Positions 1,095 through 55,414 of a stretch of 64,000 nucleotides of DNA are shown here, piece by piece. The stretch spans positions 5,872 through 69,871 of the forward strand of contig CAYTFC010000004.1 in assembly GCA_964436955.1 (NCBI GenBank), read 5' to 3'. The position numbers were made by a program, and so were the translations under genes. Source of the stretch: an uncultured bacterium. GTDB lineage: Bacteria; Chlamydiota; Chlamydiia; Chlamydiales; JAJFMA01. The notes beneath the pieces were generated by a model. That model had not been told where the DNA came from and made no database searches. It was given only the letters and a program-made list of their open reading frames with translations. Position 1 is the first letter of the stretch. The number at the start of each line of letters is the position of its first letter.

Positions 1095-1140
1095 AGTCGA
1101 TAAATTTTACACAAAGCATAGCTATAGAGGATTTTCATTC

Positions 1141-6865: not shown

Positions 6866-6867
6866 TC

Positions 6868-8745: not shown

Positions 8746-8759
8746 AAAAATGTCACCCC

Positions 8760-9271: not shown

Positions 9272-9320
9272 TTCTTTCTATCCTAAGTATGCTCGTGCCA
9301 TAAGGAATGTAGGAGTTAAA

Positions 9321-27551: not shown

Positions 27552-27561
27552 GGAGATGACG

Positions 27562-30270: not shown

Positions 30271-30285
30271 TAGGAATAAGACATT

Positions 30286-32694
30286 ATGGAACAGTTTACA
30301 GCTCTAGAATCAACTTTGGATCAGGAAGAGCTTAAAGAATCTCTTACCCCCTTAGAAATAAATAAGATCGATGCTTATTGGAGAGCTGCAAACTATCTTT
30401 CTGTGGGGCAAATTTATCTGCTAGATAATCCGCTTCTTAAAAAACCTCTCTCACTTCAACATATTAAGAGAAGGCTTTTAGGACACTGGGGAACAACACC
30501 TGGGTTGAATTTTATTTATGCCCATCTCAACCGTCTAATCAAAGCCCATGATCTCAACATGCTCTTTTTGGCTGGTCCTGGGCATGGTGGACCAGGGGTT
30601 GTCGCTAATGTCTATCTTGAGGGCACGTACTCCGAATTCTATCCAAACATCTCTCAAGACGAAGAAGGAATGAAGAAGCTCTTCAAGCAATTTTCTTTTC
30701 CTGGGGGAATTCCTAGCCATGTCGCACCTGAAACACCCGGATCAATCAACGAAGGAGGAGAACTCGGATATGTACTCTCACATGCATATGGAGCAATATT
30801 TGATAATCCCGATCTCATCGCGTGCTGCGTAGTCGGAGATGGAGAAGCTGAAACTGGACCGCTCGCAACGAGCTGGCATTCTAATAAATTTATCAATCCC
30901 ATTCATGATGGTGCTGTACTCCCTATCCTCCATCTAAATGGCTTTAAAATTGCCAATCCTACAGTGCTTGCTCGGATTGATCGAGATGAATTAGAAGACC
31001 TCTTCCGTGGCTATGGTTATAATCCCTATTTTGTTGCCGGATCAGATCCCGAAACTATGCATAAGCTGATGGCGGCAACACTAGATATTGTGATTGCTGA
31101 AATTAAGGAAATTCAACAGCTCGCACGTGTAAAAAATATCAGCAAACGGCCTCGCTGGCCAATGATTATTCTGCAAACGCCGAAAGGGTGGACCGGTCTT
31201 AAAGAAATTGATGGAAAGCAAGTTGAAGGTTCCTGGCGCTCACATCAGGTCCCATTTACAGACTTTGCCACTAATCCAAGTCGATTAAAACTTCTAGAAG
31301 ATTGGATGAAAAGCTATCGACCAGAGGAACTCTTTGATGAACAAGGTAAGTTCAAGCCCGATCTGGCAGAGTTGGCTCCACATGGTACTCGTCGAATGGG
31401 ATCTAATCCACATGCCAATGGTGGAATTTTATTAAGAGATCTGCGCATGCCTAATTTCCGCGATTATGCTGTTTCAGTGACTAAGCCTGGAATCGTTGAA
31501 GGAGAAGCCACGCGTATCTTGGGTCGCTTTTTGCGTGATATTATGAAACTGAATATGGACAGTCGAAATTTCCGTGTGATGGGGCCTGATGAGACCGCTT
31601 CAAATCGACTAGAGGCCTTGTTTGAAGTTACTGGGCGTGCATTTGATGGAAAGATCTATTCCAGTGATGATGATTATCTTTCACCAGATGGAAGGGTCAT
31701 GGAAATGTTAAGCGAACATATGTGTCAAGGATGGCTTGAAGGTTATCTTTTGACGGGAAGACATGGTTTGTTCTCTTGCTACGAGGCTTTTATCCATATT
31801 ATCGATTCGATGTTCAATCAACATGCAAAATGGTTGAAGACAACACGACGTATCCCTTGGCGCCGGCCGATTGCTTCATTAAACTATCTTTTAACTTCAC
31901 ATGTGTGGCGTCAAGATCACAATGGATTTTCTCATCAAGACCCTGGATTTATCGACCATGTCGTGAATAAAAAAGCTGAAGTCATTCGAGTGTACCTACC
32001 ACCAGACACAAATACACTACTTTCAGTGGCTAATCACTGCCTAAAAAGCAAGAACTACGTCAATGTGATTGTCGCTGGAAAACAACCAGCCCTTCAATAT
32101 CTCACTATGGATGAAGCTGTTCAACATTGCTCTAAGGGTATTGGAATATGGAAATGGGCCAGCAATGACTTTGACAATGAACCTGATGTGGTCATGGCTT
32201 GTGCCGGTGACGTTCCTACCATGGAAACTTTAGCTGCTGTAGACTTGCTTCGACGTCATGTTCCTGATTTAAAAGTTCGTTTTATCAACGTCATCGATTT
32301 GATGGTCCTTCAGCCGCAAAGCGAACATCCCCATGGTCTTTCAGATCAAGAGTTCGACGAAATATTTACAACAGATAAACCGATTATTTTTGCTTTCCAT
32401 GGTTACCCTTGGCTAATTCATCGTCTTACATATAGAAGAGCAAACCACAAAAATCTTCATGTTAGGGGATATAAAGAGGAAGGGACAACGACTACACCTT
32501 TTGACATGGTCGTTCTCAATGATCTCGATCGCTTCCATTTATTTGTTGATACAGTGGAAAGAGTGCCGCGATTTTCCAAGAGGACTGCTTACATAAGAGA
32601 ATTGGCAGAAAGCAAATTACTGGAACACAAAAATTACATTCAAGAGTTTGGGGATGATCTTCCAGAAATTCGTGACTGGAAATGGCCTTATTAA
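30286..32694 (+). CDS. xfp: xylulose-5-P/fructose-6-P phosphoketolase
   Basis: 802 aa. Motifs characteristic of phosphoketolases: [30 protein letters not shown] and GDGEAETGP. Confidence 0.9.
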
Positions 32695-32705
32695 AGGAAA
32701 TATTA

Positions 32706-34097
32706 ATGACTAAATTACAAGTAATCGGAATAACAGCCCTCTCTCTTTTTATTTCTAGCTGTGCCCGTGTGCCGCATGGAAGTGAGGAGCAAGTGGTGGG
32801 CATCGTGCAAGAACGGATTGGAAAAGAAGTTCTCTGGAATCACTCTTGTTACGAGGATCCATGTATAAAAGCTTACATACAAGATCTAGTGTATCAAACG
32901 CTTACATCTGAGTCGGTTGTCCAAATTGCTCTTCTGAACAATCCCCAAATTCAAGCAACATTTGAAGAGCTTGGAATTGCTCAAGCAGATTTAGTTGAGG
33001 CTGGTCTTCTTTCCAATCCCGCTTTTGAAGTCGAGGTTCGCTATCCTCACGTAAAAAAATTAAGAACTAATATTGAATATCTTGTAACAGCGACATTCCT
33101 AGATATTTTCTTGGTGCCTCTTCGTACAAGATTGGCAACAGCAGAACTCGAACAGGCAAAACGCAGAGTTACCAATGAGATTTTAAATTTAGCCTTTGAG
33201 GTCAGACAAACTTATTATGAACTCTTAGCTGAACAGCAAAAGCTCAAATACACGAGATCTATTGTCGAATTGACAAGTATTCATGGTGAAATTGTTTCAA
33301 GACAAAACATAGTAGGAAATGTCAATCGTCTCGATTTTCAGCAAGTGCAGGCTAGATTGTTAGAAGCCAAACTGGAAATCGCCAAAGAACAAACTAAAAT
33401 TATTCGTCTTAGAGAGAAATTAAATAGACTCTTGGGTCTTAGCGAAGAAGTCTGCCTTCGTTTACCAGAAGAAATCCCAGAAGAGATCGATTACCAAGGG
33501 TTTGATCTTTGCGCCTTAGAATCGATTGCTTTAGAAGAAAGACTAGACCTACAAGAAGCACGATTTGAAGTCATTCGATTAAGTCGAATGCTTGGGCTAA
33601 AAGATTGGTGGACATTTACAAACCTAAAAGCTGGCCTTGCCGGTGAGCGCGATCCTGATGGATTAAACTTAGTGGGTTATGGAGTATCAGGAGAAATTCC
33701 AATTTTCAACTTTGGGCAAGCCGCCAGAATGCGCATTTTTGCTCAACTTAGACAAGCCCAAGATCGTTTTTTAGCCTTAGAAATACGCATTCTTTCCGAG
33801 GTAAGAGAAGCCCATAAACTTCTCATAAGCGATTTAGGAATGATCAATGATTATCGAGGGGGAATCATTCCTTTGCAAAGTAAAATCCTTAGTTCTTCAG
33901 AAGAATTATATAATGTAATGGGTCTTGGCGTTGATCGTCTTTTAGAAAACAAACGTCAGGAATTAGAAGCCTATCGAAACTATCTTGAAATTCTTAAAGA
34001 TTACTGGGTAGCACGAGTCCAGCTTGATAAAGCATTGGGAGGTTATTTATTTCGCTTATTATCTCAAGACGGTTGCATCGAAGGAGCTATAGAATGA
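32706..34097 (+). CDS. outer-membrane efflux lipoprotein (TolC/CusC-like)
   Basis: ATG 32706 gives MTKLQVIGITALSLFISSC (lipobox). The protein has OMF repeats, and ATGA overlaps the oxidase gene. Confidence 0.7.
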   Translation: MTKLQVIGITALSLFISSCARVPHGSEEQVVGIVQERIGKEVLWNHSCYEDPCIKAYIQDLVYQTLTSESVVQIALLNNPQIQATFEELGIAQADLVEAGLLSNPAFEVEVRYPHVKKLRTNIEYLVTATFLDIFLVPLRTRLATAELEQAKRRVTNEILNLAFEVRQTYYELLAEQQKLKYTRSIVELTSIHGEIVSRQNIVGNVNRLDFQQVQARLLEAKLEIAKEQTKIIRLREKLNRLLGLSEEVCLRLPEEIPEEIDYQGFDLCALESIALEERLDLQEARFEVIRLSRMLGLKDWWTFTNLKAGLAGERDPDGLNLVGYGVSGEIPIFNFGQAARMRIFAQLRQAQDRFLALEIRILSEVREAHKLLISDLGMINDYRGGIIPLQSKILSSSEELYNVMGLGVDRLLENKRQELEAYRNYLEILKDYWVARVQLDKALGGYLFRLLSQDGCIEGAIE

Positions 34098-35932
34098 AAA
34101 CTTGTTTTACCTTTTTAGGACTTTTTACCGCTTGCGCGCTTTATGGCCAAATGAATCATAACATGAGTTCGCCTAACTCTAAGATGGATCAATCTAACAA
34201 GCCTATTGAAGAAACAATGCAAGGAATGGACCAATCTCAAATGCAGAGTATGGATCATTCTAAGATGCAAAATATGCCTATGCAAGAGCACCAGCAAATG
34301 ATGCAGAAAAATCAAATGGATCAAATGGAGAGAAACGAACAAAACATCCAAAAAAGCCGAGAGGGTGCCAAAAATGAGGATCAGCCCACAAAAGGAATCT
34401 TAAGGTATCCATCTGTCATCACACCTAATGTGGGTTCTCTTCCATGGAAAATGGATGGCGATGTAAAGGTATTTCACCTTATTGCCGAACCAATTCGTAG
34501 GGAATTTGCTCCTGGCTTTTGGGTTAACTGTTGGGGTTATAATGGATCAACTCCAGGTCCTACTATTGAAGCTGTCGAAGGAGATCGAGTCAGAATCCTT
34601 GTAACAAATAAACTAAATGAGCCTACATCCGTTCATTGGCATGGAATTATTTTACCAAATGGTATGGATGGAGTCGCAGGTTTGAATCAAAAAGCCATTC
34701 CACCTGGGGACACCTTCAAATACGAATTTACTCTAAAGCAAAATGGTACATTTATGTATCACTCGCATTCGGATGAGATGACTCAAATTGCTTTTGGCAT
34801 GGAAGGTTTTTTCATTATCCATCCACGTAACGGCGATGATCCACCAATTGATCGTGATTTTGCAATCTTTTTACATGAATGGCGAGTTCCAATGGGAGCT
34901 AAAACACCCAATCCATTCGAAATGCTCGATTTTAATTTATTTACTTTCAATAGCGTTTTATATCCTACTACCGAGTCGTTAGTTGTTAAAACTGGTGATC
35001 GGGTACGCATTCGCTTTGGAAATGTCATGATGAACACTCACCCTATTCATATACACGGGCATGAGTTCTTAGTAACAAGAAAAGGAGGTAAAAGGCTTCC
35101 TCCTGCTGGACAATCTAGCGAAGTTACAGTGCTTGTTGCTCCAGGCGAAACAAGAGATATCGAATTCATTGCAGATAATCCTGGAGACTGGGCCCTGCAT
35201 TGCCATAAATCCCATCATGTCATGAATCAAATGCAACACGATCTTCCAAATTTAACAGGAATAAACAAGAAAGGGATCGAAGAGCGAATTAAACAATTTT
35301 TCCCAGACTTTATGGGCTTAATGAATATCAATGGAATGGGGGATATGTTTGAAATGTATGGATCTAAAGAGATGATGGACATGGGATTTGAAATGAAATA
35401 CCCATCAAATCTCTCACCAATCGGCAGTCCTGGCCCATTTGGTGTCATTGAAATGGGTGGCATGTTTACCATTTTCAAAGTTAGGGATAATTTAACCAGC
35501 TATGCTGATCCAGGTTGGTACCAGCATCCTCCAGGAACGGTCGCTGAATCTATTGACAATGGAAAAAATATGAACCAGATGAAACATCAAGATCATAATA
35601 TGAATACGATGAATCCTCTTGGAATGAAACAAAATATGGGATCAATGGATCATGATATGCAAAATATGAAAGGGATGCAAATGCAAAATTCACCCCACAA
35701 TATGAACACGGTCAGCTGGTTTAGTCAAGAAGAGGATCAAAAAGAACCGCATGGTCAAGAAAATACCAATTGGATGCAGAGTAAACCTGAAGACAGTATG
35801 GGCGGCCATATGGGTGGACATATGCCTGGTGGGCAGAAGAAAAATATGAGTCCGAATATGCAGGGGATGTCTCATGATATGGATATGCCCAACATGAATG
35901 AGAATCTAATGCAACAACACCAAGGACACTAA
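34094..35932 (+). CDS. multicopper oxidase (CopA/PcoA-like) with Met/His-rich tails at both ends
   Basis: SD aaggag precedes ATG 34094, and there is a signal peptide. Copper-ligand motifs: HWHG, HSH, HPIHIHGH and HCHKSHH. Long M/H/Q-rich tracts flank the core (MDQSQMQSMDHSKMQNMPMQ; GGHMGGHMPG..MSHDMDMPNM). Confidence 0.85.
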   Translation: MKTCFTFLGLFTACALYGQMNHNMSSPNSKMDQSNKPIEETMQGMDQSQMQSMDHSKMQNMPMQEHQQMMQKNQMDQMERNEQNIQKSREGAKNEDQPTKGILRYPSVITPNVGSLPWKMDGDVKVFHLIAEPIRREFAPGFWVNCWGYNGSTPGPTIEAVEGDRVRILVTNKLNEPTSVHWHGIILPNGMDGVAGLNQKAIPPGDTFKYEFTLKQNGTFMYHSHSDEMTQIAFGMEGFFIIHPRNGDDPPIDRDFAIFLHEWRVPMGAKTPNPFEMLDFNLFTFNSVLYPTTESLVVKTGDRVRIRFGNVMMNTHPIHIHGHEFLVTRKGGKRLPPAGQSSEVTVLVAPGETRDIEFIADNPGDWALHCHKSHHVMNQMQHDLPNLTGINKKGIEERIKQFFPDFMGLMNINGMGDMFEMYGSKEMMDMGFEMKYPSNLSPIGSPGPFGVIEMGGMFTIFKVRDNLTSYADPGWYQHPPGTVAESIDNGKNMNQMKHQDHNMNTMNPLGMKQNMGSMDHDMQNMKGMQMQNSPHNMNTVSWFSQEEDQKEPHGQENTNWMQSKPEDSMGGHMGGHMPGGQKKNMSPNMQGMSHDMDMPNMNENLMQQHQGH

Positions 35933-36517
35933 ATGAACAAGCAATTAATTTTGGGTTTATTGTGTATGTTGTGCTTTACAGTTCTTTTTGGCCATGAAGA
36001 GCATAAAAGTATGGAGGAGAGCAAAACTCCACAAGAAAGCATCACTCCCTCTTCAGGTCAACCGACTGTTAAGCATTTTGGTGGTAGGCCATTAACTTGG
36101 ACGCAATGGGTCGGAAGCTTTCATTTTATTTTTCTACACTTCCCTCTTGCTTTGATCGCAATGACTGCTATTTCTGAGTTTTTATTTACTTGGTTCCAAA
36201 GGCCTATTTTTGATTATTCCTCTCGATTTATGTTAATTGCAGCGGCTGTTTTTTCGGTTCCTACGGCTTTATTAGGACTAACTTATAGTTATACAGCCTC
36301 TTATAGTGGAATACTTGCTGATTTCATTTGGTGGCATATGTGGTTTGGAATAGCAACTGCTGTATTTGCAATCATTGTGGCTTTTCTTCGGGAACGATTA
36401 GGAAGAAGTAAGCTTTACTTTACAAGTCTTTTTCTCTTGTTCCTGTTGGTAAATATCACAGGATATCTCGGAGGAGGAATGACATTTGGGCCTTACCACA
36501 TGTATCCTCCTCTTTAA
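35933..36517 (+). CDS. membrane protein, DUF2231-like (4 TM)
   Basis: N-terminal signal, then HEEHKSMEE. FHFIFLHFPLALIAM is typical of DUF2231. It sits inside the copper cluster. Confidence 0.45.
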   Translation: MNKQLILGLLCMLCFTVLFGHEEHKSMEESKTPQESITPSSGQPTVKHFGGRPLTWTQWVGSFHFIFLHFPLALIAMTAISEFLFTWFQRPIFDYSSRFMLIAAAVFSVPTALLGLTYSYTASYSGILADFIWWHMWFGIATAVFAIIVAFLRERLGRSKLYFTSLFLLFLLVNITGYLGGGMTFGPYHMYPPL

Positions 36518-36539
36518 CCAAACCAAAATGGAGTGTTTT

Positions 36540-36920
36540 ATGGAAAATAAAGGAAATAACAAAGAAAACAATAAAGGATGCTGTTCAACACATGCTTCCT
36601 TTCCTCAAACAGATTCTAAAGAAATGCAAAAATTAATGGAATGCATGAGCGTTTGTGCTGCTTGTTCCAAAATGTGCATTGATCAAGGTCAAAAGAAAAC
36701 AGCAGCTTTATGCGCTGAATGTGCTGACGTATGTTCTCTAGCAATAAAAGCTCAAAGCAATCAGTCAGAATTTCAACATCAGATCATGGACCTTTGTGCA
36801 CAAATATGTCGAAAATGTGCAGAAGAATGCAAAAAAATGAAAGTTGACCACTGTCAAGAATGTGCAGAAGTTTGTACTCGCTGTGCTGAGTCTTGTTCAA
36901 CAGCTCATAGCCATCATTAA
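36540..36920 (+). CDS. Cys-rich four-helix-bundle copper-binding protein (DUF326-like)
   Basis: Repeated CxxxCxxC-type spacing (CMSVCAACSKMC, CAECADVC, CAQICRKCAEEC, CQECAEVCTRCAESC). The start is either 36540 (SD ggag) or 36528. Confidence 0.7.
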   Translation: MENKGNNKENNKGCCSTHASFPQTDSKEMQKLMECMSVCAACSKMCIDQGQKKTAALCAECADVCSLAIKAQSNQSEFQHQIMDLCAQICRKCAEECKKMKVDHCQECAEVCTRCAESCSTAHSHH

Positions 36921-36925
36921 TCCTC

Positions 36926-36961
36926 AAGAAAGCCTTAAGATATTTACCTTAAGGCTTTCTT
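36926..36961 (+). terminator. 14-bp stem hairpin after the copper cluster
   Basis: aagaaagccttaag (36926-36939) pairs with cttaaggctttctt (36948-36961) around an 8-nt loop. It lies 6 nt after the stop codon. Confidence 0.6.
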
Positions 36962-37005
36962 AGAAATAGCCAATAGGCAGTTTTAATATTTTATGGGAGA
37001 AATAA

Positions 37006-37551
37006 ATGGATAGTGAAACCATCGCCTACTTCTCAATGGAAATTGCTCTTGAGGAGGGAATTCCTACTTATAGCGGCGGTTTAGGCGTTTTAGCTGGAGA
37101 CATGCTGCGTTCTGCCGCTGATTTAAAACTGCCAATTGCCGCCGTCACACTCCTTTATCGTAAAGGGTATTTCTATCAAAAATTAAATTCCCAGGGAATC
37201 CAGAGCGAAAGGCCTGTGGAATGGGTGGTATCCGACTTTCTAGAAGAGCTTCCTCAACGCATAGAAGTAAGCGTTGAAGGTAGAAAAATTCAAGTGAGAG
37301 CCTGGCAATATAACATTACAAGCAAAGAAGGATATAGTATTCCTGTCTATTTATTGGATACCGACTTGCCTGAAAACAGTACCTGGGACAGAACTTTAAC
37401 CGATTTTCTCTATGGAGGCGATCAATATTATCGATTTTGCCAAGAGATCGTACTGGGGATTGGGGGCGTTAGGATCTTACGCTCTCTCGGCTATGATCAA
37501 ATTAGACGATTTCATATGAATGAAGGGCATGCAAGTCTCTTAACTCAGTGA
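37006..37551 (+). pseudogene. glgP: alpha-glucan (glycogen) phosphorylase, N-terminal ~180-aa fragment only
   Basis: [38 protein letters not shown] and [12 protein letters not shown] match the GT35 N-terminus. The ORF stops just after the NEGH motif, whereas full-length enzymes are several hundred residues longer. Confidence 0.7.
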
Positions 37552-45902: not shown

Positions 45903-46346
45903 CTATTGAACTGAGGCTGCCGCGGATTTTTCTTTCATTTTTAAATCATAGCTTATGACTTTATTGTCTATTTGTTCCGGTGCTAGCCCGGACATTAAAG
46001 CATGTTCGTTTAAGCAAGCTTGATAATTGGGATCAGCGTTATTCTTTAAAGTGGCAAGTGTTTCTAGGTTAGCAGGGGGGATTGCAACATCTGTGTGAGA
46101 GTTAATGAATCCTTTTACAGCTTGCCAAGTGACTAATGTTCTATGGGGAACAATGGGTGTATAAAAAGGATCCATCCCTTCCACAGAAACTAAAACTTTA
46201 GTTGATTCGATGTGATGCAAAATGTTGGGTGATCCATCCGTGTGAACGATTTCTAACGATCCGTAGCATTTCGCATCGAAATCAAACGAGATCTGCTTGC
46301 CAGGGTAAATGCTTTTAAAAAATTCTTTGGCTTCATAGTAGTTCAT
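45903..46346 (-). CDS. hypothetical protein, last gene of the fibre operon
   Basis: Start at ATG 46346 after SD aggag (MNYYEAKEFF...). The track's 186-aa form would overlap the upstream gene by 107 nt. Confidence 0.5.
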   Translation of the reverse strand: MNYYEAKEFFKSIYPGKQISFDFDAKCYGSLEIVHTDGSPNILHHIESTKVLVSVEGMDPFYTPIVPHRTLVTWQAVKGFINSHTDVAIPPANLETLATLKNNADPNYQACLNEHALMSGLAPEQIDNKVISYDLKMKEKSAAASVQ

Positions 46347-46356
46347 TTTTTTTCTC

Positions 46357-47031
46357 CTAAATAAAATAGCCTGTTGAAAATTGGTAACCGCCATTGTTGG
46401 TAACACTGTCTTGAGTAGTAATTCCTGCTCCATAAGCATATGCACGATAAACTGTAGAGGCAATTTGCGCTTGAATATTCGATACGTAGAAAGTGCCTAC
46501 ATTTCTATAGGCACCTGCCACTATTTGGCCAACTCCTAATCCATCATTTCTGACAGTGAAGGGGAGTCCTCCGATATTCACAATGCCTGTTCCTGTGTTA
46601 GTTTGCGTAGATGAGTTATAAACTATGTGGCATACATTTCCCATTCTTTGATAATAGCCAAATTGGAAAAAATACACTCCAGAACCAGCTGTGGTTGCTC
46701 CAGTCAAAGTCGGAGTGAATGTGCCTTCTGAAAAAGTTGACAGAACGTTCGTTCCTGAATTAAAGGATATCCCAGAAAACCAAATATTTCCTGTGGATGG
46801 ATCAGCCGTTAAAACAGTGGATCCAGAAGATGGGTCTATTGTTCCACTTGCTGCGTGAGTAATCTTTAATCGATTTGAATCACTAAAATCGACACCCATT
46901 GAATACGAACGTGTTGTCCCTATGGATAGTTGATACCAAACATCACTAGAAACTGTCGGTTGAGTGACTGTTGCTGAATTGATGATTTTAGCTTTATATA
47001 GCGTATTGTTATCAGAATTATTGATCGCCAT
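46357..47031 (-). CDS. tail-fibre-like protein with the shared MAxNNS N-terminus
   Basis: The N-terminus MAINNSDNN resembles the four upstream fibre genes. The composition is Ser/Thr/Gly-rich and beta-type. Confidence 0.5.
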   Translation of the reverse strand: MAINNSDNNTLYKAKIINSATVTQPTVSSDVWYQLSIGTTRSYSMGVDFSDSNRLKITHAASGTIDPSSGSTVLTADPSTGNIWFSGISFNSGTNVLSTFSEGTFTPTLTGATTAGSGVYFFQFGYYQRMGNVCHIVYNSSTQTNTGTGIVNIGGLPFTVRNDGLGVGQIVAGAYRNVGTFYVSNIQAQIASTVYRAYAYGAGITTQDSVTNNGGYQFSTGYFI

Positions 47032-47094
47032 GTGTTTACCTCAATAAAGCCCGTAAACTTCAAATTTAGGGCGGCTAGCTTTACCAGACATTTT

Positions 47095-47166
47095 CTTGGA
47101 TGTCTGGGTGTCTGGATGTTTGGAATTCCAACTATCTGGATTCCTGGTTTCCCAACCATCAGATTA
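47095..47166. repeat. nine tandem 8-bp units (consensus TCTGGATG) in an intergenic spacer
   Basis: The units read cttggatg|tctgggtg|tctggatg|tttggaat|tccaacta|tctggatt|cctggttt|cccaacca|tcagatta. An inverted copy ccagacat lies at 47084-47091. Confidence 0.75.
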
Positions 47167-47218
47167 TCAACGTTTACTTCACGTTGAAAGTCACAGGAAA
47201 ACATATTTTAATCCGATT

Positions 47219-48121
47219 TTAAAAAAATTCATACACCCAAATTTCACCGCGAGCCCCATTTCCTGCAGCAGCTCCATTGCTGACACTATCAGTTCCTCCT
47301 CCGCCACCGCCTCCACCCCCACCAGGTGTTCCTCCCGTTCCTCCAGGAGCAGGCGCCGCTCCACCACCACCACCTGTTCCTGTACAAAATACGCCGCCAG
47401 AAGTAATAGATGTATTTGGAGTTCCGTTTCCGCCATTTTGAACAATATTAACAACCCCTCCAGACCCACCATTTGAGATGACAGATGGCGAAGCCGCCCA
47501 TGTTCTTATATTTCCTCCGCGACCTCCATTAAAGCGAGTATTTCCCGTATTCAATCCTCCGCCACCTCCAGCACCCCCACCTCCTAGGCAAGAGCCTAAT
47601 CCAGTAGCGTTAGGCGAGTCCTCACCATTATTCGCAGCCCCCACGGCTCCACTTCCTCCAGCTCCAGCAACTTGAACAGCATAAAAATTGCTGAGAACAT
47701 ATGGAGCACCTCCTCCAGATCCACCCCCTCCATTTAATCCTCCACCTCCGAATGAGCTGATACTTGGACTATAAGTGAAAATGTTTCCAAAAGAAGTGAT
47801 TCCTGCAGCTGACCCATTATTTCCATTTGTACTATTTGTTGTTTGTGTTGAGCCTCCATTTCCACCAGCTCCAATAGTCACAGTTTGAGTGACTCCTAGC
47901 GAAGAGGCATCGCATTGATAAATGAACATACCAGAGCAACTACCACCGCCACCGCCACCGACGTTTGTTCCAGAAGCTCCTCTTCGTCCTCCACCGCCTC
48001 CGCCTCCACCACCCCAGCCAACAATCAAAGCAGAAGTCGTTCTAGAATCTTTAGTCCAAGATCCTGAAGCGGTGAATTTGGTTATTTTTGAACTTTTATT
48101 TATAGAATTATTGACTGCCAT
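47219..48121 (-). CDS. glycine-rich fibre-module protein, paralog 3
   Basis: N-terminus MAVNNSINKSSKITKFTASGSWTKDSRT..GWGGGGGGGGG and C-terminus ARGEIWVYEFF. About half the residues are Gly. Confidence 0.7.
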   Translation of the reverse strand: MAVNNSINKSSKITKFTASGSWTKDSRTTSALIVGWGGGGGGGGGRRGASGTNVGGGGGGSCSGMFIYQCDASSLGVTQTVTIGAGGNGGSTQTTNSTNGNNGSAAGITSFGNIFTYSPSISSFGGGGLNGGGGSGGGAPYVLSNFYAVQVAGAGGSGAVGAANNGEDSPNATGLGSCLGGGGAGGGGGLNTGNTRFNGGRGGNIRTWAASPSVISNGGSGGVVNIVQNGGNGTPNTSITSGGVFCTGTGGGGGAAPAPGGTGGTPGGGGGGGGGGTDSVSNGAAAGNGARGEIWVYEFF

Positions 48122-48147
48122 ATCTAAACCTCAATGGATCCATATAA

Positions 48148-49023
48148 TTAGAAATGTTCAACGATTATTATTTTACCAGCAGACCCTGTGCCACCTGCTC
48201 CTGAATTGGCTTGCGCGGATATTCCACCACCACCTCCGCCACCAGCACCTCCAGGATTACCTCCATTTCCACCAGTTCCTCCTGTCGCTCCAGCTTTCGC
48301 TCCTCCGCCACCACCGCCAGCCGAACCACCGCAAACCAGCCCTCCGCTAGTAACGGCAGTATTGCCATCTCCACCATTTATGGTACCTGTTTCTATGCCT
48401 GCGGTTCCACCAGCTATATAAGTTACGCCATTTGAATTATTAATTGCCCCGCCAGCTCCTCCAGATCTTGCAGTAACAGTATCGCCACCACCGCCGCCAC
48501 CACCCCCTGTAGGTGAAAAAGTAATTACTGCTGCTGGGGCATCTCCTGCGGTATTTCTTCCAGAGCCACCTGGATTAGTTACAACAGAGGCAATAGCATA
48601 TGAAGTGTTTAATCCTCCCCCGACACCATTGATGCCAGATGAAGTTGTGCCACCTTGACCAGCAGCTCCACCAACAGCTATCATGTTTCCAAATGTCGTA
48701 TTACCTCCTGTAGTTCCATTATTACCGTTTGTTGCATTCACTGTTTGGGCTACCGCCCCACCAGCGCTAGCTCCTATTGTATAAGACTCTGTGGATCCAA
48801 AAAATGAAGAAGGGGCAGCAAAATATCCTGAGCCTCCTGAACCGCCGCCACCGCCTCCTGAAGATGAAGCACTAGTTCCTTTTCTTCCGGAAGCTCCACC
48901 ACCACCGCCTCCCCATAAAAATACTTCTATCCACTGCGTACGAGCATCCTTTGTCCATGTGCCAGAACTAGAAGTATAGGTAGTGACTTTAATTGAACCG
49001 TTTATACTGTTATGTGTAACCAC
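48148..49023 (-). CDS. glycine-rich fibre-module protein, paralog 2
   Basis: N-terminus MVTHNSINGSIKVTTYTSSSGTWTKDARTQ..LWGGGGGGASG and C-terminus SAGKIIIVEHF. Confidence 0.7.
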   Translation of the reverse strand: MVTHNSINGSIKVTTYTSSSGTWTKDARTQWIEVFLWGGGGGGASGRKGTSASSSGGGGGGSGGSGYFAAPSSFFGSTESYTIGASAGGAVAQTVNATNGNNGTTGGNTTFGNMIAVGGAAGQGGTTSSGINGVGGGLNTSYAIASVVTNPGGSGRNTAGDAPAAVITFSPTGGGGGGGGDTVTARSGGAGGAINNSNGVTYIAGGTAGIETGTINGGDGNTAVTSGGLVCGGSAGGGGGGAKAGATGGTGGNGGNPGGAGGGGGGGISAQANSGAGGTGSAGKIIIVEHF

Positions 49024-49039
49024 ATGGATTCCTCCCTAA

Positions 49040-49339
49040 TTAGAATGGCTCTAACTCTCCTTCTAAATTTATAGATAAAATACTTGCTCCTAACCGTGCT
49101 TTAGCCTCGTTATAAGCAGCTTCTCTCTCAGCTTTGCTAATATCATCCTCCGGTGGTTTCATAATAGAAAGAGGTCTTACATAATCTTGTAAGTCTTCCA
49201 TCCAAATATCACCCATTCCAGCTTCATGGGTTTCTTTTACTGAGTAACCTGCTGGAGGCTGCCATTCAGTCACTCCATCCCACATAATGACGTTGGAAAC
49301 CCGATTATTTTGATCTATGACTGCATATCTACTGCTCAT
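49040..49339 (-). CDS. small acidic hypothetical protein between glycine-rich paralogs 1 and 2
   Basis: 99-aa ORF tightly spaced within the operon. I recognise no motif. Confidence 0.45.
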   Translation of the reverse strand: MSSRYAVIDQNNRVSNVIMWDGVTEWQPPAGYSVKETHEAGMGDIWMEDLQDYVRPLSIMKPPEDDISKAEREAAYNEAKARLGASILSINLEGELEPF

Positions 49340-49348
49340 AATTTCTCC

Positions 49349-50224
49349 TTAAAAATATTCAAAAACCCACAATTCACCGCGTCCGCCATCTCCACCTTTT
49401 CCAGAGTTAAATCCGTTAATTGAAACACCACCTCCTGCACCACCGCCTGATGGGGATCCACCAGATCCTCCTGCACCACCTACCGACCCAGAACTAGATC
49501 CACCACCACCTCCTCCAGTGCCTCCAATAATATAGTATGACGAACTAGCTGCGTTGTTTCCTGCACCACCACCGATGCCAGCCGCTCCCGCTGTTCCGCC
49601 TGCCAATAAAACAGATGAATTTATATGCAATATGTCCCCACCTTTTCCACCCCCAAATGTTGTATTTGTGTTGGTAGTGCCACCACCACTTCCACCACAA
49701 GTTCCGGCGTAAATCATAGTTTTATTTTGACCAGCAACACCTGCTGCTCCCACTCCCCCTAATTGGCCGTCATTTGCGATGGTCACAGGAGAACCATAAA
49801 CGACAGATAATTTAGCCGTACCAGCAAATCCTTGACCGCCTGCTTGTCCACCAAATCCTCGACCCCCACCAAAGACCTGGAAAGAACCAATAGAAGTTGT
49901 TCCTCCATCTCCACCTGCATTTCCCTGTGTTGAATCAACCGTAATTGATGGTCCACCTGTACCACCTGCGCCAATAGTTACAGTTTCAACAGCTGCTAAA
50001 CGAGAGGCTTCCATTGTCTGAATAATAAATGGCCCCCCAGCTCCGGAACCACCACCACTTTTTGAATTTGTCCCAGAAACACCTCTTGGACCACTTCCAC
50101 CACCACCTCCGCCACCCCACCCAATCAAAGTAACTATTTTAGTGCGTGGATCTTTAGTCCAAGTTCCTGAAGATGTAAACTTGGTTAGTTTGCTGGTATT
50201 ATTGATCGAATTTTGCGTTGCCAT
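49349..50224 (-). CDS. glycine-rich fibre-module protein, paralog 1
   Basis: N-terminus MATQNSINNTSKLTKFTSSGTWTKDPRT..GWGGGGGGGSG and C-terminus GRGELWVFEYF. Confidence 0.7.
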   Translation of the reverse strand: MATQNSINNTSKLTKFTSSGTWTKDPRTKIVTLIGWGGGGGGGSGPRGVSGTNSKSGGGSGAGGPFIIQTMEASRLAAVETVTIGAGGTGGPSITVDSTQGNAGGDGGTTSIGSFQVFGGGRGFGGQAGGQGFAGTAKLSVVYGSPVTIANDGQLGGVGAAGVAGQNKTMIYAGTCGGSGGGTTNTNTTFGGGKGGDILHINSSVLLAGGTAGAAGIGGGAGNNAASSSYYIIGGTGGGGGGSSSGSVGGAGGSGGSPSGGGAGGGVSINGFNSGKGGDGGRGELWVFEYF

Positions 50225-50248
50225 TCATTCTCATTAAGGAAGTTTTAA

Positions 50249-50917
50249 TTAGACAACGGTTAAGTTTCCGACTGCGCTTAAAACTCTCCATGTATTATTA
50301 GCAACCACGCATAGACACTCTAAAGCATCTCCAGCGTCTGTCGAAGCTAGGCTTCCTCCAACTCCAGCAGTTGTTGCCACATTTCCAAATTTAACTGTTT
50401 GGGATGCATTTTGTGCCAATAACCAACCGCCTGCACCATTTCCGGCAATCCTGAAAACGGTTCCTTGTGCTGCTGTGGCTGGGAGAGTTAAAGTGCATAA
50501 AGAGGCATTATCTGCTATATAGCCGGTATTAACAGCGATTGCTTGAGAAGTGCCGGTTACATCTACCCATGAAGAAACGCCGCCACTGCCACCAGAGGAG
50601 GCAGCCCATTTAACACCTGAAGTCTGAGAAGAATCGGCTGTCAAAACAAAATTGTCTGTTCCAACTGTCAGAGGGGTGAATGTACCTGCTCCTGTGCCAA
50701 CAAGGACAACTCCTTTCGCAGTGTAGTCAGCAAAGCCTATTAAGGTATCTGCTGCTCTGTTTGGAAATGTATAGGTGCCTGCTCCTGCAAATCCTTGTGT
50801 AAAGGTCATATCGCCTGAGCCATTAAATGTTGCGGTCCTTTTTGTAGTACCGCCGCCAAGACTAAATCCAACCGATAGATTAGAGATATCTAGGTTAACT
50901 GATGAATTTTGAGCCAT
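50249..50917 (-). CDS. tail-fibre-like protein with the shared N-terminus
   Basis: N-terminus [10 protein letters not shown]. The [15 protein letters not shown] motif is common in phage fibre proteins. Confidence 0.55.
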
Positions 50918-51113
50918 TTTCTTGCCTCTTGTTAATTTTTAAACGAAACTCATATCGAGTTGTTTTCACCGTTCTGGTGATATTACAAATTGATTTCTGA
51001 CAATATTTGAGTCTTTGAATATATGAGTTTCTGTCTAAATTTTTTGAGCTGTCAAAATAGGCTACCTTCGAAGTAAAAATTAACGCTGAGAAGTATAGAG
51101 CCCAATATTCCGT

Positions 51114-51479
51114 TCATTTTTTAGAGCTGATTTGTTTTAATTTTTGTTTTGGTTTGTTATTTATTTTTGGCGCTTCCAGGAGTTTGACTTCTTGGGCGAT
51201 GTATTGCTGGCTTTGAGTAATCAATTGGCTCAGTGAGCTTTCAATAATAAGAAATTTATTTCTCATTTCTTCTATTGCTTGCTGAAGTGCAAATATGCGA
51301 TTGACTTCGGTTTGTTGCTGGAGGAGTAATCTTTTAGGAGCGCAATCTTTAATGACTTTTGGTTGACCCTGCCCATTTTCTTGCCACCAGGACTCCAGAT
51401 AATTGGGACAATCTTTTTCCGAAGAACATAGTTTTGCCTTTACGAAAGGACAATTTTCACCGCATGAAGTGCATTCCAT
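51114..51479 (-). CDS. Cys-rich N-terminus plus coiled-coil small protein
   Basis: MECTSCGENCPFVKAKLCSSEKDCPNY...DCAP (7 Cys in the first 47 aa), followed by heptad-like LQQQTEVNRIFALQQAIEEMRNKFLIIESSLSQL and a basic tail. Confidence 0.5.
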   Translation of the reverse strand: MECTSCGENCPFVKAKLCSSEKDCPNYLESWWQENGQGQPKVIKDCAPKRLLLQQQTEVNRIFALQQAIEEMRNKFLIIESSLSQLITQSQQYIAQEVKLLEAPKINNKPKQKLKQISSKK

Positions 51480-51495
51480 TGAGTTACCTATTTAG

Positions 51496-52110
51496 TTAAG
51501 CTTGTTTTTGACATAAAATTCCTACGACTGCCAATGGCCTCCAAGTGGCTCCATGATTGTGGGGCTGAGAAGCTCCTATTGCATTTGAAGAACTATTCAT
51601 CCCTTCTGTTGTTCCTTGTCTTGGTCGTTGATTTTTGGCTCCGTGGGCATAATGTGAACTTGTATTGCTTTGATCAGAACCAAAGAAATACTGGTGAGTA
51701 TGGTTGGGGATTTGATTAATGGTTAGGCCGACACCAGGCTGCTGCCAAGTTCCTGCTACAGTATTACCTGCTGGTCCGTAAAGACCGCCTCGAAGAGCTA
51801 AAACGCAATCCCCCAAAAAGTTGATTGGCAGCCATCCATCTGGAGCAACGTTTTGATAAAACCAGCATAAGGTTCCTGCTGGAAAACCAACCTGATCAAA
51901 TCTAATCTGATAGTTGCTTGTAGCGCGCCTTATCATAAAAAGATCGCTCGCTACAGCTGATCCATTAGGTAATGTTGGGAAGAGAGAAATATCAATCGTT
52001 CGAACTTTATCAATGGTCACTTGTTTATCGGTTAATCCCTGGCGAATGATCGTTGTATCCCCATCATCTGCAACCGAAGCGACTGGTAAACCTGGAATCT
52101 GTACTGACAT
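51496..52110 (-). CDS. tail fibre protein with phage Tail-Collar-like domain
   Basis: Start at ATG 52110 after SD aaggag. NQIPNHTHQYF and GASQPHNHG resemble collar-domain fibre motifs. Confidence 0.6.
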   Translation of the reverse strand: MSVQIPGLPVASVADDGDTTIIRQGLTDKQVTIDKVRTIDISLFPTLPNGSAVASDLFMIRRATSNYQIRFDQVGFPAGTLCWFYQNVAPDGWLPINFLGDCVLALRGGLYGPAGNTVAGTWQQPGVGLTINQIPNHTHQYFFGSDQSNTSSHYAHGAKNQRPRQGTTEGMNSSSNAIGASQPHNHGATWRPLAVVGILCQKQA

Positions 52111-52118
52111 AAATCTCC

Positions 52119-52601
52119 TTAAGGTGTTGGGTACGTTTTTGTCTGGCCCCAAACAAGAATATCTGTAGCTGTACCGCCATTAACGATTTGATTTCCTGCC
52201 AAAGTTCCTGCCCCAAGAGTCAATGTATTATTCGAAACGACTGTCAAAGTAGGTGCTAATCCTGGTTTTTTTGCTCCAACGGCAAAAATGTATCGAGTGG
52301 GGTTGGCTAAATCTACGGCGGTTAGAGTGATCAAAGTTCCGGCAGTTCCGTCATAAGGGAAAAGACCTACGCCGTTTCCATCGGTCAAAATAGCTAATTC
52401 CTCTTGCTGTTTTAAGAAGGCCAGCCAGCGATTTGTGTATCTTCCCAACCAATTGAACCAATTTCGAGGTGGAAATTCTAAACGAGCCCAACCTTCTAAT
52501 TTTTTTTCAGTAGGCGGTTCAAGAACGTTGTTTTGCCCTGATATTGGATCTACAACATCATTTTCTGCCCATTCAGGTAAAATTGTAGGTTTAAGCACCA
52601 T
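52119..52601 (-). CDS. tail fibre protein (N-terminal fibre-attachment type)
   Basis: PEWAENDVVDPISGQNNVLEPPTEKKLEGWARLEFPPRNWFNWLGRYTNRWLAFL is a common phage fibre N-terminal pattern. Confidence 0.6.
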   Translation of the reverse strand: MVLKPTILPEWAENDVVDPISGQNNVLEPPTEKKLEGWARLEFPPRNWFNWLGRYTNRWLAFLKQQEELAILTDGNGVGLFPYDGTAGTLITLTAVDLANPTRYIFAVGAKKPGLAPTLTVVSNNTLTLGAGTLAGNQIVNGGTATDILVWGQTKTYPTP

Positions 52602-52611
52602 TGTTAACTCC

Positions 52612-53367
52612 TTAAGGTATTGGCGGCTGCGAGCCGTTAAACATGATGACTTCGGCTAATTGTCCAGCCCCTGTCGTATCAATTGGGGTTCCAAATTCGG
52701 CAAAGCCTCCTCCAAAAGTTGGATTTGTTACTCTGCCTGCTTGCACAGCTAGAAGATCGCCTGTATTAATTTCTAAATTTTCCAAATCAAATGGATTAGC
52801 TTCATTAGGTGCGACAAGAAGTAGATCTTCGACGGGGTCCCCGCTAAAAACAAAAGGAAGCGGAACATTGTAAGTTGCAGTAATGGGAGTGTATTGAACG
52901 CCTGCTGGACTGACAGATTGAATAGCAGTAACAAGTTGGTCGGGAGGATTTGGAAATACCAGACCATCAGTGGACATTTGAAAAGCTGCGGGATAATATT
53001 CATGGTAACGGATTTTATTCGCTTTTGTGAGGAATTTGAGAACGGTAATGACTTCTTCAGGCGTGCCATTTGCCTTATTTATAAAAATTTGAAACTTCAG
53101 TCTTTCTCTGTAATCTTCATCGGATTCATTTGGTAAACGCGCGAGACCAAGAATTTCACCAAGTCCATCCAACTGCGCTCCAATTGAGGTTTCCAAGGAG
53201 CGTTGAAATTTTAAGTCTTGATCGACATTGTCTATTTCTTGCATTGACTTGACAAAGGCGCGAATAAACCTTTGAAAACGGCTATATTCTCCATCAACGA
53301 GACTTTGCTGAAATTGACCTGCTAAAAGGGCAATGGCTCTTTGAACGTGATTGGCTATTCTAACCAT
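52612..53367 (-). CDS. baseplate wedge / fibre-adaptor protein (gpI / Mu gp48-like position)
   Basis: It lies directly downstream of the J-like gene. LDGLGEILGLARLPNESDEDYRERLKFQIFINKANGTPEEV resembles DUF2612/DUF2313-type proteins. Confidence 0.5.
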   Translation of the reverse strand: MVRIANHVQRAIALLAGQFQQSLVDGEYSRFQRFIRAFVKSMQEIDNVDQDLKFQRSLETSIGAQLDGLGEILGLARLPNESDEDYRERLKFQIFINKANGTPEEVITVLKFLTKANKIRYHEYYPAAFQMSTDGLVFPNPPDQLVTAIQSVSPAGVQYTPITATYNVPLPFVFSGDPVEDLLLVAPNEANPFDLENLEINTGDLLAVQAGRVTNPTFGGGFAEFGTPIDTTGAGQLAEVIMFNGSQPPIP

Positions 53368-53425
53368 GTCACCCCCTCAAACAGTAGGGTCAACCATTTT
53401 GTTGGCGTCAGCATAATGGTTGTTA

Positions 53426-55414
53426 TCATACTGTCACCGTGATTCTTGTTAGATCAAAGACGGAGATTTCATTTTCTGCGATGACGATATCTGCTGTACC
53501 AAATAGGGGAGTATCCCCTGGTTCATTCGTGGATGCAATTTGCATCACGCCGCTAGCGATTCCGGGAACACTAAAAATTTGAGCAAGGACGCGTTGCAAT
53601 AGAACGTCTATGCCTATGCCTAAAGTAGATCCATAGGTGTTAATGGCTGCTGCCACTAAGTCTTGACCATTTGGAGGAAATACTTCCTCAGCATATAGGG
53701 TTAAGGTAACCGTAACCCAAATGTAGATTGGAGTGGGGCGGCTAAAATTGATGACTTGGAATTCGCCTTGTGAGTCGGTGATGGTAAACGCAGTATTCCC
53801 GAATGTTTGGATACCTGCTGGTTTCGTGGTCCAGATTTTATTTGCGACGTCAGCATCAGTGCCTCCTTGTACGACAGCTTCAAAACTTTTTGGAACTCTT
53901 CCGCCTTTAATAACCGCCGTCGCTTGTGAAGCCCCTCCGCTGACGGTGAAATCATTGGGGATCATTGTTACTTCGATAGCGGTTGCCATATCCATAGTGA
54001 TGGTTCTATTGGCTGTCCCTCCAACGCTTGCAGTAACAACTTCAGGCTGATTTTGAATCAAAGCAGCAATTACGCTCATGGTAGCCAAATGAGAAGTCGC
54101 AAAGGTGACGGTTGGCAAAGTCGTACCATTTAAAACGACGACTATGGTGTTGCCTGTGACCAAATCTTGATTTAATACGATCAAAATTGGTTCTTGAGTC
54201 AAGGTACTATTTTCGAAAACTAAAGCAGATATTACTCCAGGTACTTGCTGAAGCAATCTTGCTCTTATAGATTCAACTGTTCCAGCTCCCAAGAGTCGAA
54301 GCGAATTGTTTCGACGTATTCTTAATTCCGCATCCGTTTCAATGAAACGACCTGTCACTCCAGCTTTAAGATTATTTATTGATATCCAACCTGAAATAGG
54401 AGTGAGGATTTCGGTCAATGTATTGACAGGGGCAGCGATTGGACCAAAATCTTGGGATAGAAAAACAACAGGAGTAGATTGGGCAGTGATGCTTAAATTA
54501 GTTCCAACAGCGATGGAAAAGGGAACGTCTGACTCATCGGCATTGATGGTTATAGTTCCATCCATATTATCTATGGCCGTCACAGGTTGAACCCCAGCAT
54601 TGACTACGGAAGCAAGGGCTGCTGTTAATGCGTTATTTGATGCTGGGATTTGATAAGTAATTGCATAAGTAGGTTGGCTTGCTCCGCCTGTGATCACGAT
54701 TGAATTGACTATGGCATTGAATCCAACATTTGGAATGATGGTGATAATATTTGGATTTGTTGGTGTTGCAGAAAGAACGGCAGGGGAAGTGGAAATCTGC
54801 GCAGCTAATAGAGCCAAAGTCGTGTTGTTATTCGTAGTAAAAGGAACCGCTGCTAATTGAACTCCATTGATGGTGGCAACTATTGAATTTGAAGTAACAA
54901 AACTCCCTGTAAAAGTGACGATAGGCAGCGAATATGAAAAGGCTTGATTGTTGATTAGAGCCGTATAAATTTGAGCTGCCAAAGCGCTAACCTGAATAGT
55001 TGCGGATGCTGCCTGTGTTCTTGTAATAATCGTGTTTTGTTGAGCAAAGAAAACAGCTCCGGTATCGGGGATTCTAGCGAGGGCTCCTTGATTGATAAGA
55101 GTGCCATCTAATCCAGCGCAGACGCCTATAACTCTAGTTTGTTGAGCGGCAAGTCGAGTGATGCCATTTAATTGAACGACGTTATCGAGGCTGATCCCTT
55201 CCGCGAAGTTGGGATATTGGCTGAAATAAACATCCTCCATATTTTCCCAAAGATCGGCTAATACTTTTGAAAATACTCCGATTTGCTGGCCAAATATAGA
55301 TTGCGGATCTAAGTTGATATCGCCAAATTCTGCGAGCAGCTGATTTTCTAAATCAGTTTGAATATCGACTAATCGTTTAGCTTTAAATCCCTGAGCGGTT
55401 AAACCAAATGTCAT
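53426..55414 (-). CDS. baseplate J-like protein with large inserted repeat modules
   Basis: It lies downstream of the gp25-like gene. The J-like core is FIETDAELRIRR...LLGAGTVESIRARLL. At 662 aa it is about twice the usual J size because of the insertions at aa 166-305 and 416-505. Confidence 0.7.
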   Translation of the reverse strand: MTFGLTAQGFKAKRLVDIQTDLENQLLAEFGDINLDPQSIFGQQIGVFSKVLADLWENMEDVYFSQYPNFAEGISLDNVVQLNGITRLAAQQTRVIGVCAGLDGTLINQGALARIPDTGAVFFAQQNTIITRTQAASATIQVSALAAQIYTALINNQAFSYSLPIVTFTGSFVTSNSIVATINGVQLAAVPFTTNNNTTLALLAAQISTSPAVLSATPTNPNIITIIPNVGFNAIVNSIVITGGASQPTYAITYQIPASNNALTAALASVVNAGVQPVTAIDNMDGTITINADESDVPFSIAVGTNLSITAQSTPVVFLSQDFGPIAAPVNTLTEILTPISGWISINNLKAGVTGRFIETDAELRIRRNNSLRLLGAGTVESIRARLLQQVPGVISALVFENSTLTQEPILIVLNQDLVTGNTIVVVLNGTTLPTVTFATSHLATMSVIAALIQNQPEVVTASVGGTANRTITMDMATAIEVTMIPNDFTVSGGASQATAVIKGGRVPKSFEAVVQGGTDADVANKIWTTKPAGIQTFGNTAFTITDSQGEFQVINFSRPTPIYIWVTVTLTLYAEEVFPPNGQDLVAAAINTYGSTLGIGIDVLLQRVLAQIFSVPGIASGVMQIASTNEPGDTPLFGTADIVIAENEISVFDLTRITVTV

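Follow-up and report, generated by a model that had tools for sequence, protein, structure and literature searches.

What is the purpose of a shared peptide at the start of five neighbouring genes whose products carry three different types of head? The genes lie downstream of a contractile-tail gene set in a 64,000-nucleotide (nt) stretch, here called the window, of contig CAYTFC010000004.1 from an uncultured bacterium of the Chlamydiales. A sequence-only reading of the window had proposed a shared adaptor on divergent bodies, and hence several receptor-binding proteins (RBPs) on one baseplate. On balance, we consider it probable that the cassette encodes modular RBPs that dock by the short N-terminal peptide they share. 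Each protein would consist of an octapeptide, M-A-x-x-(N/S)-(S/A)-(I/V/D)-N, a short stalk or none, and then a head domain. There would be three head types: the glycine-rich TG1, TG2 and TG3, the anchor-plus-knob protein m222, and m224. The peptide would be a plug that fits every protein to one type of socket, located on the baseplate or on a fibre complex, and heads could be added, lost or exchanged without change to the rest of the tail. Two further small proteins, chap99 and d147, would aid folding and stay out of the virion. The compositional part of the earlier proposal stood, with three classes of body, the peptide on all three in unrelated phages, and turnover of the gene set; the docking part stays conditional.

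The five open reading frames (ORFs) were recovered on the minus strand, each beginning M-(A/V)-x-x-(N/S)-S-x-N. The motif as first given, M-(A/V)-x-x-N-S-x-N, held in four of them; m222 has N at position 4 and S at position 5. The genes are neighbours on one strand but not strictly consecutive, as had been stated, since chap99 lies between TG1 and TG2. All ATG, GTG and TTG starts on both strands of the whole window were scanned for (A/V)xx(N/S)SxN at the head of at least 50 codons. Exactly five sites matched, all of them the starts of cassette genes. In glycine-rich homologs from other sources, the peptide was found on 13 of 22 stand-alone proteins and on 8 longer ones, compared with 0 of 150 control proteins, the latter being homologs of the 99-amino-acid (aa) chap99. 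The N-terminal similarity, which the sequence-only reading had allowed might vanish on testing, thus persisted and, as judged from sequence, exceeds chance.

The peptide is conserved on unrelated bodies. In 107 full-length m222 homologs, reaching down to about 45% identity, positions 2, 4, 5, 7, 8 and 9 were each occupied by one residue in 96–106 proteins, while positions 3 and 6 varied, and the N-terminus MA(R/H/N)NS(S/A/G)VNLDIS was almost invariant. In unrelated loci (L018, L025, L035, L045, L050 and L054) the peptide heads TG-type bodies, bodies of the m222 knob type (K-type) and others, and the variants MAINNSMN, MALTNSIC, MAKINSINN, MAIRNSIN and MAKQNCVN were seen in unrelated contigs. 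Proteins P0012, P0035 and P0051 have 25–65 residues inserted before the domain, with the peptide still at the extreme N-terminus. Residues 1–5 had confidence values (pLDDT) below 50 in both monomer models, of TG1 and m222, as would be expected for a segment that becomes ordered only on a partner. At the DNA level the 5′ ends are only 60–75% alike, and the region has no long repeats except glycine-codon runs. The idea that these ends were duplicated recently or act as a recombination handle was therefore rejected, and the paralogs are taken to be old.

Such conservation speaks for the peptide having a function of its own. Codon composition would not yield residue-level conservation with positions 3 and 6 left free, and this tells against an account in which the peptide has no docking role and is either an ancestral gene start or an A/T-rich, unstructured start favouring late-gene translation, with attachment, if any, through other surfaces. 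That account gains from the AAT, AAC, TCT and ATA codons that encode the motif directly after the start, as A/T-rich codons there could serve translation too, and from the true paralogy of the three glycine-rich genes. The 9 of 22 stand-alone homologs that lack the strict motif also fit it. However, the motif heads bodies without detectable mutual similarity, is borne by no further ORF start on either strand of the window, and remains N-terminal despite the long inserts that follow it. We regard the account without docking as very unlikely.

Docking by short peptides has precedents. The RBPs of phages K1-5 and SP6 are reported to be attached to adapter or anchor proteins by conserved 7–11-residue N-terminal peptides (PMC6872550, PMC8825819), and a similar attachment has been modelled for Klebsiella phages (PMC6872550). 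These branched systems (K1-5/SP6 gp37, G7C gp66/gp63.1, CBA120 TSP1-4, and the Klebsiella KP32/KP34 and phiK64-1 groups; PMC8825819, PMC6872550) resemble the cassette in that several RBP genes lie side by side, their products begin with a short conserved peptide, and the gene set varies among close relatives. They differ in carrying beta-helix depolymerase tailspikes, whereas the cassette heads are small and lectin- or brush-like (about 100–280 aa). Their peptide sequences are unrelated to that of the cassette, whose host is a chlamydia-related bacterium.

The bodies behind the peptide were identified by domain. TG1, TG2 and TG3 align over their full length at 42–46% pairwise identity (TG3 is 44–46% identical to TG1 and TG2), with 32% glycine and 11–13 glycine-rich stretches each, and are indeed paralogs with conserved ends, as the earlier reading had held. 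Common blocks are NSIN..K.T.(F/Y)T.SG.WTKD.RT, followed by a WGGGGGG run, and the C-terminal ends GELWVFEYF, GKIIIVEHF and GEIWVYEFF. TG2 has a strong GGGAGG ribosome-binding site 7 nt 5′ of its start. The comparison with Pfam glycine-rich families that had been suggested placed TG1 (26.7 bits) and TG2 (25.1 bits) above the gathering cut-off of 24.3 bits for PF21722 (Gly_rich_2); TG3 scored 19.0 bits, under the cut-off, and 227 bits against the profile of family alignment A2, which includes TG3. A database search returned 216 homologs of the family. Some stand alone, at about 300 aa; in others the glycine-rich domain forms the C-terminus of a longer protein that carries the fibre domains DUF2793, DUF5907, Phage_fiber_2 or fibritin.

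A 53-member profile of the family matched one solved structure, the Bxb1 gp33 'tail wing brush' (E 2.9e-10), over only positions 28–134 of 296. The AlphaFold model of TG1 (pLDDT 86.2, pTM 0.86) is mostly neither helix nor strand by DSSP; it has no helix, and its first strand begins at residue 11. Foldseek matched this model to Bxb1 gp33 (9D93 chain Q, E 1.9e-9) and Pam3 gp24 (7YPX_A and 7YFW_a, E 1e-5 to 7e-5), with a probability of 1.00 for these three chains, and to the TNF-like plus glycine-rich domain of ALK/LTK (E 5e-4 to 1e-2). Among predicted viral structures there were 252 matches with E ≤0.001, some named minor tail or tail fibre protein. A beta-helix or collagen-like fold, which the earlier reading had advised looking for, was recovered in neither the TG1 model nor the Foldseek matches. 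A single-sequence search of the PDB with TG1 gave no real match, only chance antibody and hydrolase matches. The TG1 protein had no match in cultured phages, where the low-complexity filter probably removes the glycine runs. The TG1 model suggests that TG1–3 are stand-alone TNF-like plus glycine-rich domains, a known phage receptor-binding fold. The many glycine-rich stretches, and the low share of helix and strand in the model, are indirect signs of a possible lattice of polyglycine-II helices. Because of the PF21722 membership and the fold matches to Pam3 gp24 and Bxb1 gp33, the domain and its usual role in phages can be considered known, and the statement that glycine-rich domains have no established function in phage tails is out of date. 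Such a domain is ordinary for phage tails.

The role is described for Pam3 gp24, that phage's sole tail fibre, whose distal TNF-like and polyglycine-II domains, with conserved glycine stems and a variable tip, recognize the host receptor (PMC9608196, PMC9942802). By fold, gp24 (7YPX, 7YFW) is a TNF-like plus glycine-rich receptor-binding domain like TG1, and both it and the TG proteins have about a dozen glycine-rich stretches with conserved stems and variable loops. The Pam3 gp24/gp25 pair may be comparable to a glycine-rich gene with the adjoining chap99, a small chaperone-like gene beside a fibre gene, although gp25 has 162 aa and chap99 99 aa; the Pam3 chaperone is of a type with an N-terminal beta-sandwich resembling that of phage Mu Tfa. 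In addition, a Pfam family that takes its name from the Pam3 gp18 plug is matched by one tail gene of the window. There is, however, no sequence-level match between gp24 and the TG proteins, and Pam3 has a single fibre, whereas the cassette has three TG paralogs besides two further types of head. Docking of the Pam3 fibre relies on a long helical bundle at its N-terminus and on disulfides to Cys-rich wedge loops (PMC9942802). The bundle and the wedge-linking Cys28 are missing in the TG proteins: about 10 residues precede the first strand of TG1, and the first 60 residues of TG1, TG2 and TG3 contain no Cys.

Two other proteins with the same supradomain or a comparable domain were considered. 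The ALK/LTK structures (7LS0, 7NX3, 7NX1) share the supradomain with TG1 by fold, at low TM-scores of about 0.2; the proteins are receptor tyrosine kinases of animals, and the match is not meant to suggest a common function. The S16/T2-type gp38 adhesin (6F45), whose polyglycine-rich domain caps the fibre and sets the receptor, has been compared with Pam3 gp24 (PMC9608196). It attaches by an N-terminal domain of its own and contains a beta-helix instead of a TNF-like sandwich, and was absent from the 40 Foldseek matches of TG1 and from the PDB sequence searches.

The cassette turns over between near-identical elements. Related loci were collected with a degenerate DNA pattern for FT(S/A)S(G/D)TWTKD. 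The order m222-TG1-chap99-TG2-TG3-m224-d147 is found in the window and in the identical or near-identical L001–L004, L059 and L062. In L030, L032, L042, L058 and L060 it is m222-chap99-TG2′-TGx-m224-d147, of which L030, with its upstream end cut off, shows TG2′-TGx-m224-d147 only. L008, L011 and L039 have m222-chap99-TG2′-TGx followed by a TG3 remnant, and a Criblamydia plasmid has m222-chap99-TG-TG, in both cases without m224 and d147. L057 has an m222 homolog only. L061 adds a 517-aa protein (3974–5527) that shares 92% identity with m222 over its first 103 residues and has an unrelated body; this protein is a natural chimera joined at the anchor/knob junction. In some elements whose cassettes differ, ParA and the primase-helicase are 99–100% identical to those of the window.

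Within this set, five related elements lack TG1, whose gene forms a clean insertion of 882 nt. TG2 orthologs (91–93% identity) occur in all related elements that have glycine-rich genes. At the position of TG3, related elements hold another paralog, TGx (MVLRNSIN). Short stretches left over from the 5′ portion of a TG3-like gene, 78–85% identical to 47855–48062 of the window, sit after the second glycine-rich gene in L039 (3070–3215), L011 (4198–4296) and L008 (3720–3821). Tandem pairs or triplets of glycine-rich genes were also found in the unrelated contigs L024/L050, L025, L046 and L052. The turnover pattern is that expected of host-range modules.

The nearest solved relative of the TG proteins by sequence and fold, Bxb1 gp33 (9D93), offers a different view of their role. 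Like them, it stands alone, is rich in glycine and has a similar size (267 aa), but Bxb1 is a siphovirus of an actinobacterium while the tail of the window is of the myovirus type. It is held on a wing of gp30 and gp31 (PMC12646305), homologs of which were not seen here. Deletion of the wing base gene causes only a modest loss of fecundity (PMC12646305), and the brush fingers are described with hydrophobic patches presumed to touch lipid-rich walls (PMC13243795; brush domains are also discussed in PMC13243192). The TG proteins could similarly be dispensable accessory brushes, providing weak, generic adhesion to the lipid-rich or protein-rich chlamydial envelope, with specific recognition residing in m222, m224 or the upstream protein collar204. 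The number of glycine-rich genes per related element, from 0 to 3, is in keeping with this. The variation among orthologs is not: in TGx, differences cluster at residues 127–170, with the glycine runs invariant, and confinement to one central segment suggests selection on a specific binding surface. The TG1 model is least confident at residues 130–180, the stretch that matches this variable segment. A purely accessory role for the brushes appears quite improbable.

The second head type is that of m222, in which a glycine-rich linker joins an N-terminal half (about residues 1–110) to a beta-sandwich knob at the C-terminus, the K domain (residues 115–222). It has 793 homologs, and its first ~110 residues are better conserved than the last ~110. 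An alignment profile found no sequence-level match in the PDB, and the single sequence gave only chance antibody and hydrolase matches. The AlphaFold model (pLDDT 80 overall, >95 for the knob) matched CBA120 TSP4-N (E 1e-6) and the Klebsiella phage KP1 baseplate chain 9f4a_LS (E 1.6e-4) in Foldseek, and T4 gp10 weakly (E 0.6). From the resemblance of the model to the TSP4 anchor/assembly fragment, we hold loosely that m222 may be an anchor plus XD1-like protein, with a shape similar to that of the N-terminal ~180 residues of CBA120 tailspike 4. As a C-terminal domain, the K domain also occurs in 175–999-aa proteins adjoining glycine-rich genes in 8 unrelated loci; because these loci were picked for carrying glycine-rich genes, there is no background against which to judge the adjacency. 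Some other contigs carry two or three m222 paralogs together.

These features could also be read as a branched adapter, in which the N-terminal half of m222 anchors to the baseplate and a trimeric knob is the socket for the peptides of TG1–3 and m224, in the manner of K1-5 gp37 or of CBA120 TSP4 carrying other tailspikes. RBPs that bear a peptide are known to dock on T4gp10-like domains (PMC8825819, PMC6872550), m222 is the first cassette gene and occurs in every related element, and in the 8 unrelated loci the K-domain proteins lie immediately 5′ of the glycine-rich genes, L046 having two such fibre-then-TG pairs. Residue-level mapping agrees poorly with this arrangement. The sole alignment, by hhalign, was non-significant (probability 2.5%) and placed the glycine linker and knob start of m222 on the junction of TSP4 anchor, glycine linker and XD1, not on XD2 or XD3; XD1 is described as a spacer, and partners are bound by XD2/XD3 (PMC8825819). 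In addition, m222 itself bears the peptide, and its knob is the more variable half, as would be more natural for a head that binds receptors than for a socket that accepts an unchanging peptide. The contig with an m222 homolog and no glycine-rich gene (L057), and the m222 paralogs found together elsewhere, like alternative heads, point the same way. We therefore judge a branched adapter unlikely, and prefer m222 as one of the mounted heads.

Two observations on relatives of these proteins are recorded here. The only cultured-phage match to m222 was to Microcoleus phage My-WqHQDG (OR578706.1, 138922–139200), in a protein annotated as hypothetical; it covers the knob only, at 46% identity (E 2e-19). 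In four unrelated loci of 22–36 kb (L005, L035, L046 and L054), whose arrays include knob-type and brush-type proteins, a conserved ~110-aa protein with the consensus ..LR.E..RSLAFGSIG..Y..VG lies directly 5′ of the first fibre gene (e.g. L005, 5110–5439). It has no counterpart in the window.

The third head, that of m224, carries the motif EGTFTPT...GLPFT. Only 7 homologs were found, and the C-terminal head of ~125 aa recurs on longer proteins. A single-sequence PDB search gave chance antibody and hydrolase matches only. The head is putatively beta-rich and different from the TG and m222 heads. The d147 gene starts 10 nt after m224, has an AGGAG site, and was also called in the identical contig. 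It had no Pfam or PHROG family match. It accompanies m224 in L030, L032, L042, L058 and L060, and both are missing from L008, L011, L039, L061 and the Criblamydia plasmid; d147 is a possible partner or chaperone of m224.

For chap99, no Pfam or NCBIfam match was found; a PDB search with the single sequence gave chance matches only, and one with an alignment profile gave none. Residues 1–48 match phrog_14370. Of 182 homologs, 46 were aligned; 38 of these fall in one PHROG of unknown function and 6 match PHROG tail-fibre-assembly families (1e-25 to 1e-29). Related small ORFs lie directly 3′ of glycine-rich genes in the unrelated L020 (37% identity, E 4e-17) and L005 (E 1.7e-5). By sequence relationship, chap99 is probably a tail-fibre assembly chaperone for the glycine-rich proteins.

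Candidates for the socket are found between the wedge genes and the cassette. The genes fibN160, collar204 and cys121 directly follow the baseplate wedge genes and precede the five cassette genes, and show weak PHROG tail-fibre or tail-protein matches. All related elements keep them, at 74–99% identity, regardless of the cassette downstream. The three proteins are thus candidate docking sites for the cassette proteins. Among them, cys121 could be a docking hub, by analogy with the Cys-rich wedge loops that tie the Pam3 fibres. Its first 25 residues contain six Cys (MECTSCGENCPFVKAKLCSSEKDCPNY) and are followed by a Q/E/K-rich stretch.

The window is part of a phage-plasmid-like, contractile-tailed element of chlamydia-related (environmental, amoeba-dwelling) bacteria. 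It is identical (100%) to a 70-kb groundwater metagenome contig, 17.7 kb of it are 99.99% identical to part of a 92-kb Protochlamydia naegleriophila Diamant contig (PMC5010888), and a circular 89.5-kb Criblamydia sequanensis plasmid is 95% identical to it. In the Criblamydia record all genes of the cassette region are annotated as hypothetical; a 'phage group' of genes on such chlamydial plasmids has been noted before (PMC7846284). The element combines a myovirus tail with a large terminase, ParA, a primase-helicase and metal-resistance cargo. Upstream of the cassette, on the same strand, is a complete contractile-tail set of myovirus type: neck terminator, sheath (DUF3383), tube, tail chaperone, tape-measure-like protein, Dit-like protein, Pam3_gp18 plug, E217-type hub, spike, sheath initiator, a 662-aa wedge protein (53426–55414) and a DUF2612 wedge protein (52612–53367). 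ParA and a DnaG/DnaB-type primase-helicase lie 3′ of the cassette. No head genes were seen within the 64-kb window; a headless tailocin was nevertheless rejected in view of the large terminase and neck terminator.

The cassette genes are co-directional, with gaps of 8–26 nt within blocks and a GAGG or AGGAG site 5′ of each. Promoter and terminator scans gave site counts no higher than in shuffled sequence. DNA of positions 46000–53500 had no match in cultured phages, and none of ten proteins searched matched NCBIfam. The run of genes has only two long gaps. One, of 187 nt between TG3 and m224, holds a 22-nt palindrome, and the other carries an inverted repeat (Table 1). Elsewhere in the window, two AbiEii-type toxin genes, each followed by an ORF of ~197 aa, flank the terminase and DNA methylase genes. 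The cargo, with copper and cation efflux systems, includes two resistance-nodulation-division (RND) efflux sets, each with an outer-membrane factor, a membrane-fusion protein and an AcrB-type pump, as well as two P-type ATPases, a multicopper oxidase, a phosphoketolase and an ATPase with an ArsR-type helix-turn-helix. Beyond window position 37541, the cargo varies among otherwise near-identical elements.

Table 1. Positions of the cassette genes and other features in the window
Feature	Position	Strand	Length	Remarks
fibN160	52119–52601	minus	160 aa	tail-fibre-type N-terminus
collar204	51496–52110	minus	204 aa	HxH motifs
cys121	51114–51479	minus	121 aa	Cys-rich N-terminus
Long gap	50918–51113			inverted repeat, arms 50934–50955 and 51021–51042
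m222	50249–50917	minus	222 aa	MAQNSSVN
TG1	49349–50224	minus	291 aa	MATQNSIN
chap99	49040–49339	minus	99 aa	between TG1 and TG2
TG2	48148–49023	minus	291 aa	GTG start, MVTHNSIN
TG3	47219–48121	minus	300 aa	MAVNNSIN
Palindrome in TG3/m224 gap	47115–47136		22 nt	centre GGAATTCC
m224	46357–47031	minus	224 aa	MAINNSDN
d147	45903–46346	minus	147 aa	
Integrase	12873–13856			
AbiEii-type toxin gene	14517–15377	minus		
AbiEii-type toxin gene	20155–21027	minus		
Cargo	1084–10751	plus		
Cargo	21905–37551	plus		

Several points weigh against peptide-docked RBPs, besides the codons after the start and the stand-alone homologs without the strict motif. Docking by the peptide, presence in the virion and receptor binding are what we infer, and the socket is postulated, with candidates only. 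The TM-scores of the TG1 model to solved structures are moderate (0.37–0.58). As the TG proteins are without the Pam3-type helical bundle, their attachment cannot work as in Pam3. Bxb1 gp33 sits on a dispensable wing and not on the primary fibre (PMC12646305), and a brush domain therefore need not be an essential receptor binder. The docking of modular RBPs by their common peptide is nevertheless the reading that we favour.

The glycine-rich domain was known; the peptide, the stand-alone tandem arrangement, the chlamydial setting and the change of gene set between near-identical elements are new here. A bolder version is possible, though we would not count on it. The octapeptide, as M-A-x-x-N-(S/A)-(I/V)-N, might be a widespread and so far undescribed universal plug of uncultivated phages, swapping brush, knob and other heads between contractile-tailed elements and ~36-kb contigs of a different phage type. 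It would be carried here by the first tailed phage (a phage-plasmid) known in the Chlamydiota, with the cassette deciding which chlamydial lineage is entered.

If the peptide is a docking plug, it would be a very small, portable handle for mounting different receptor-binding heads on one tail, useful for reading host range from metagenomes and for engineering. The cassette is also present on plasmids of cultured chlamydia-related bacteria, Protochlamydia and Criblamydia. Little is known of the phages of amoeba-resisting bacteria: the report on the Protochlamydia genome cites only Chlamydiamicrovirus phages, from classical Chlamydia (PMC5010888), and the 'phage group' genes are the other precedent (PMC7846284). 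The five proteins would therefore be the first concrete candidates for recognition of a chlamydial cell by a tailed particle.

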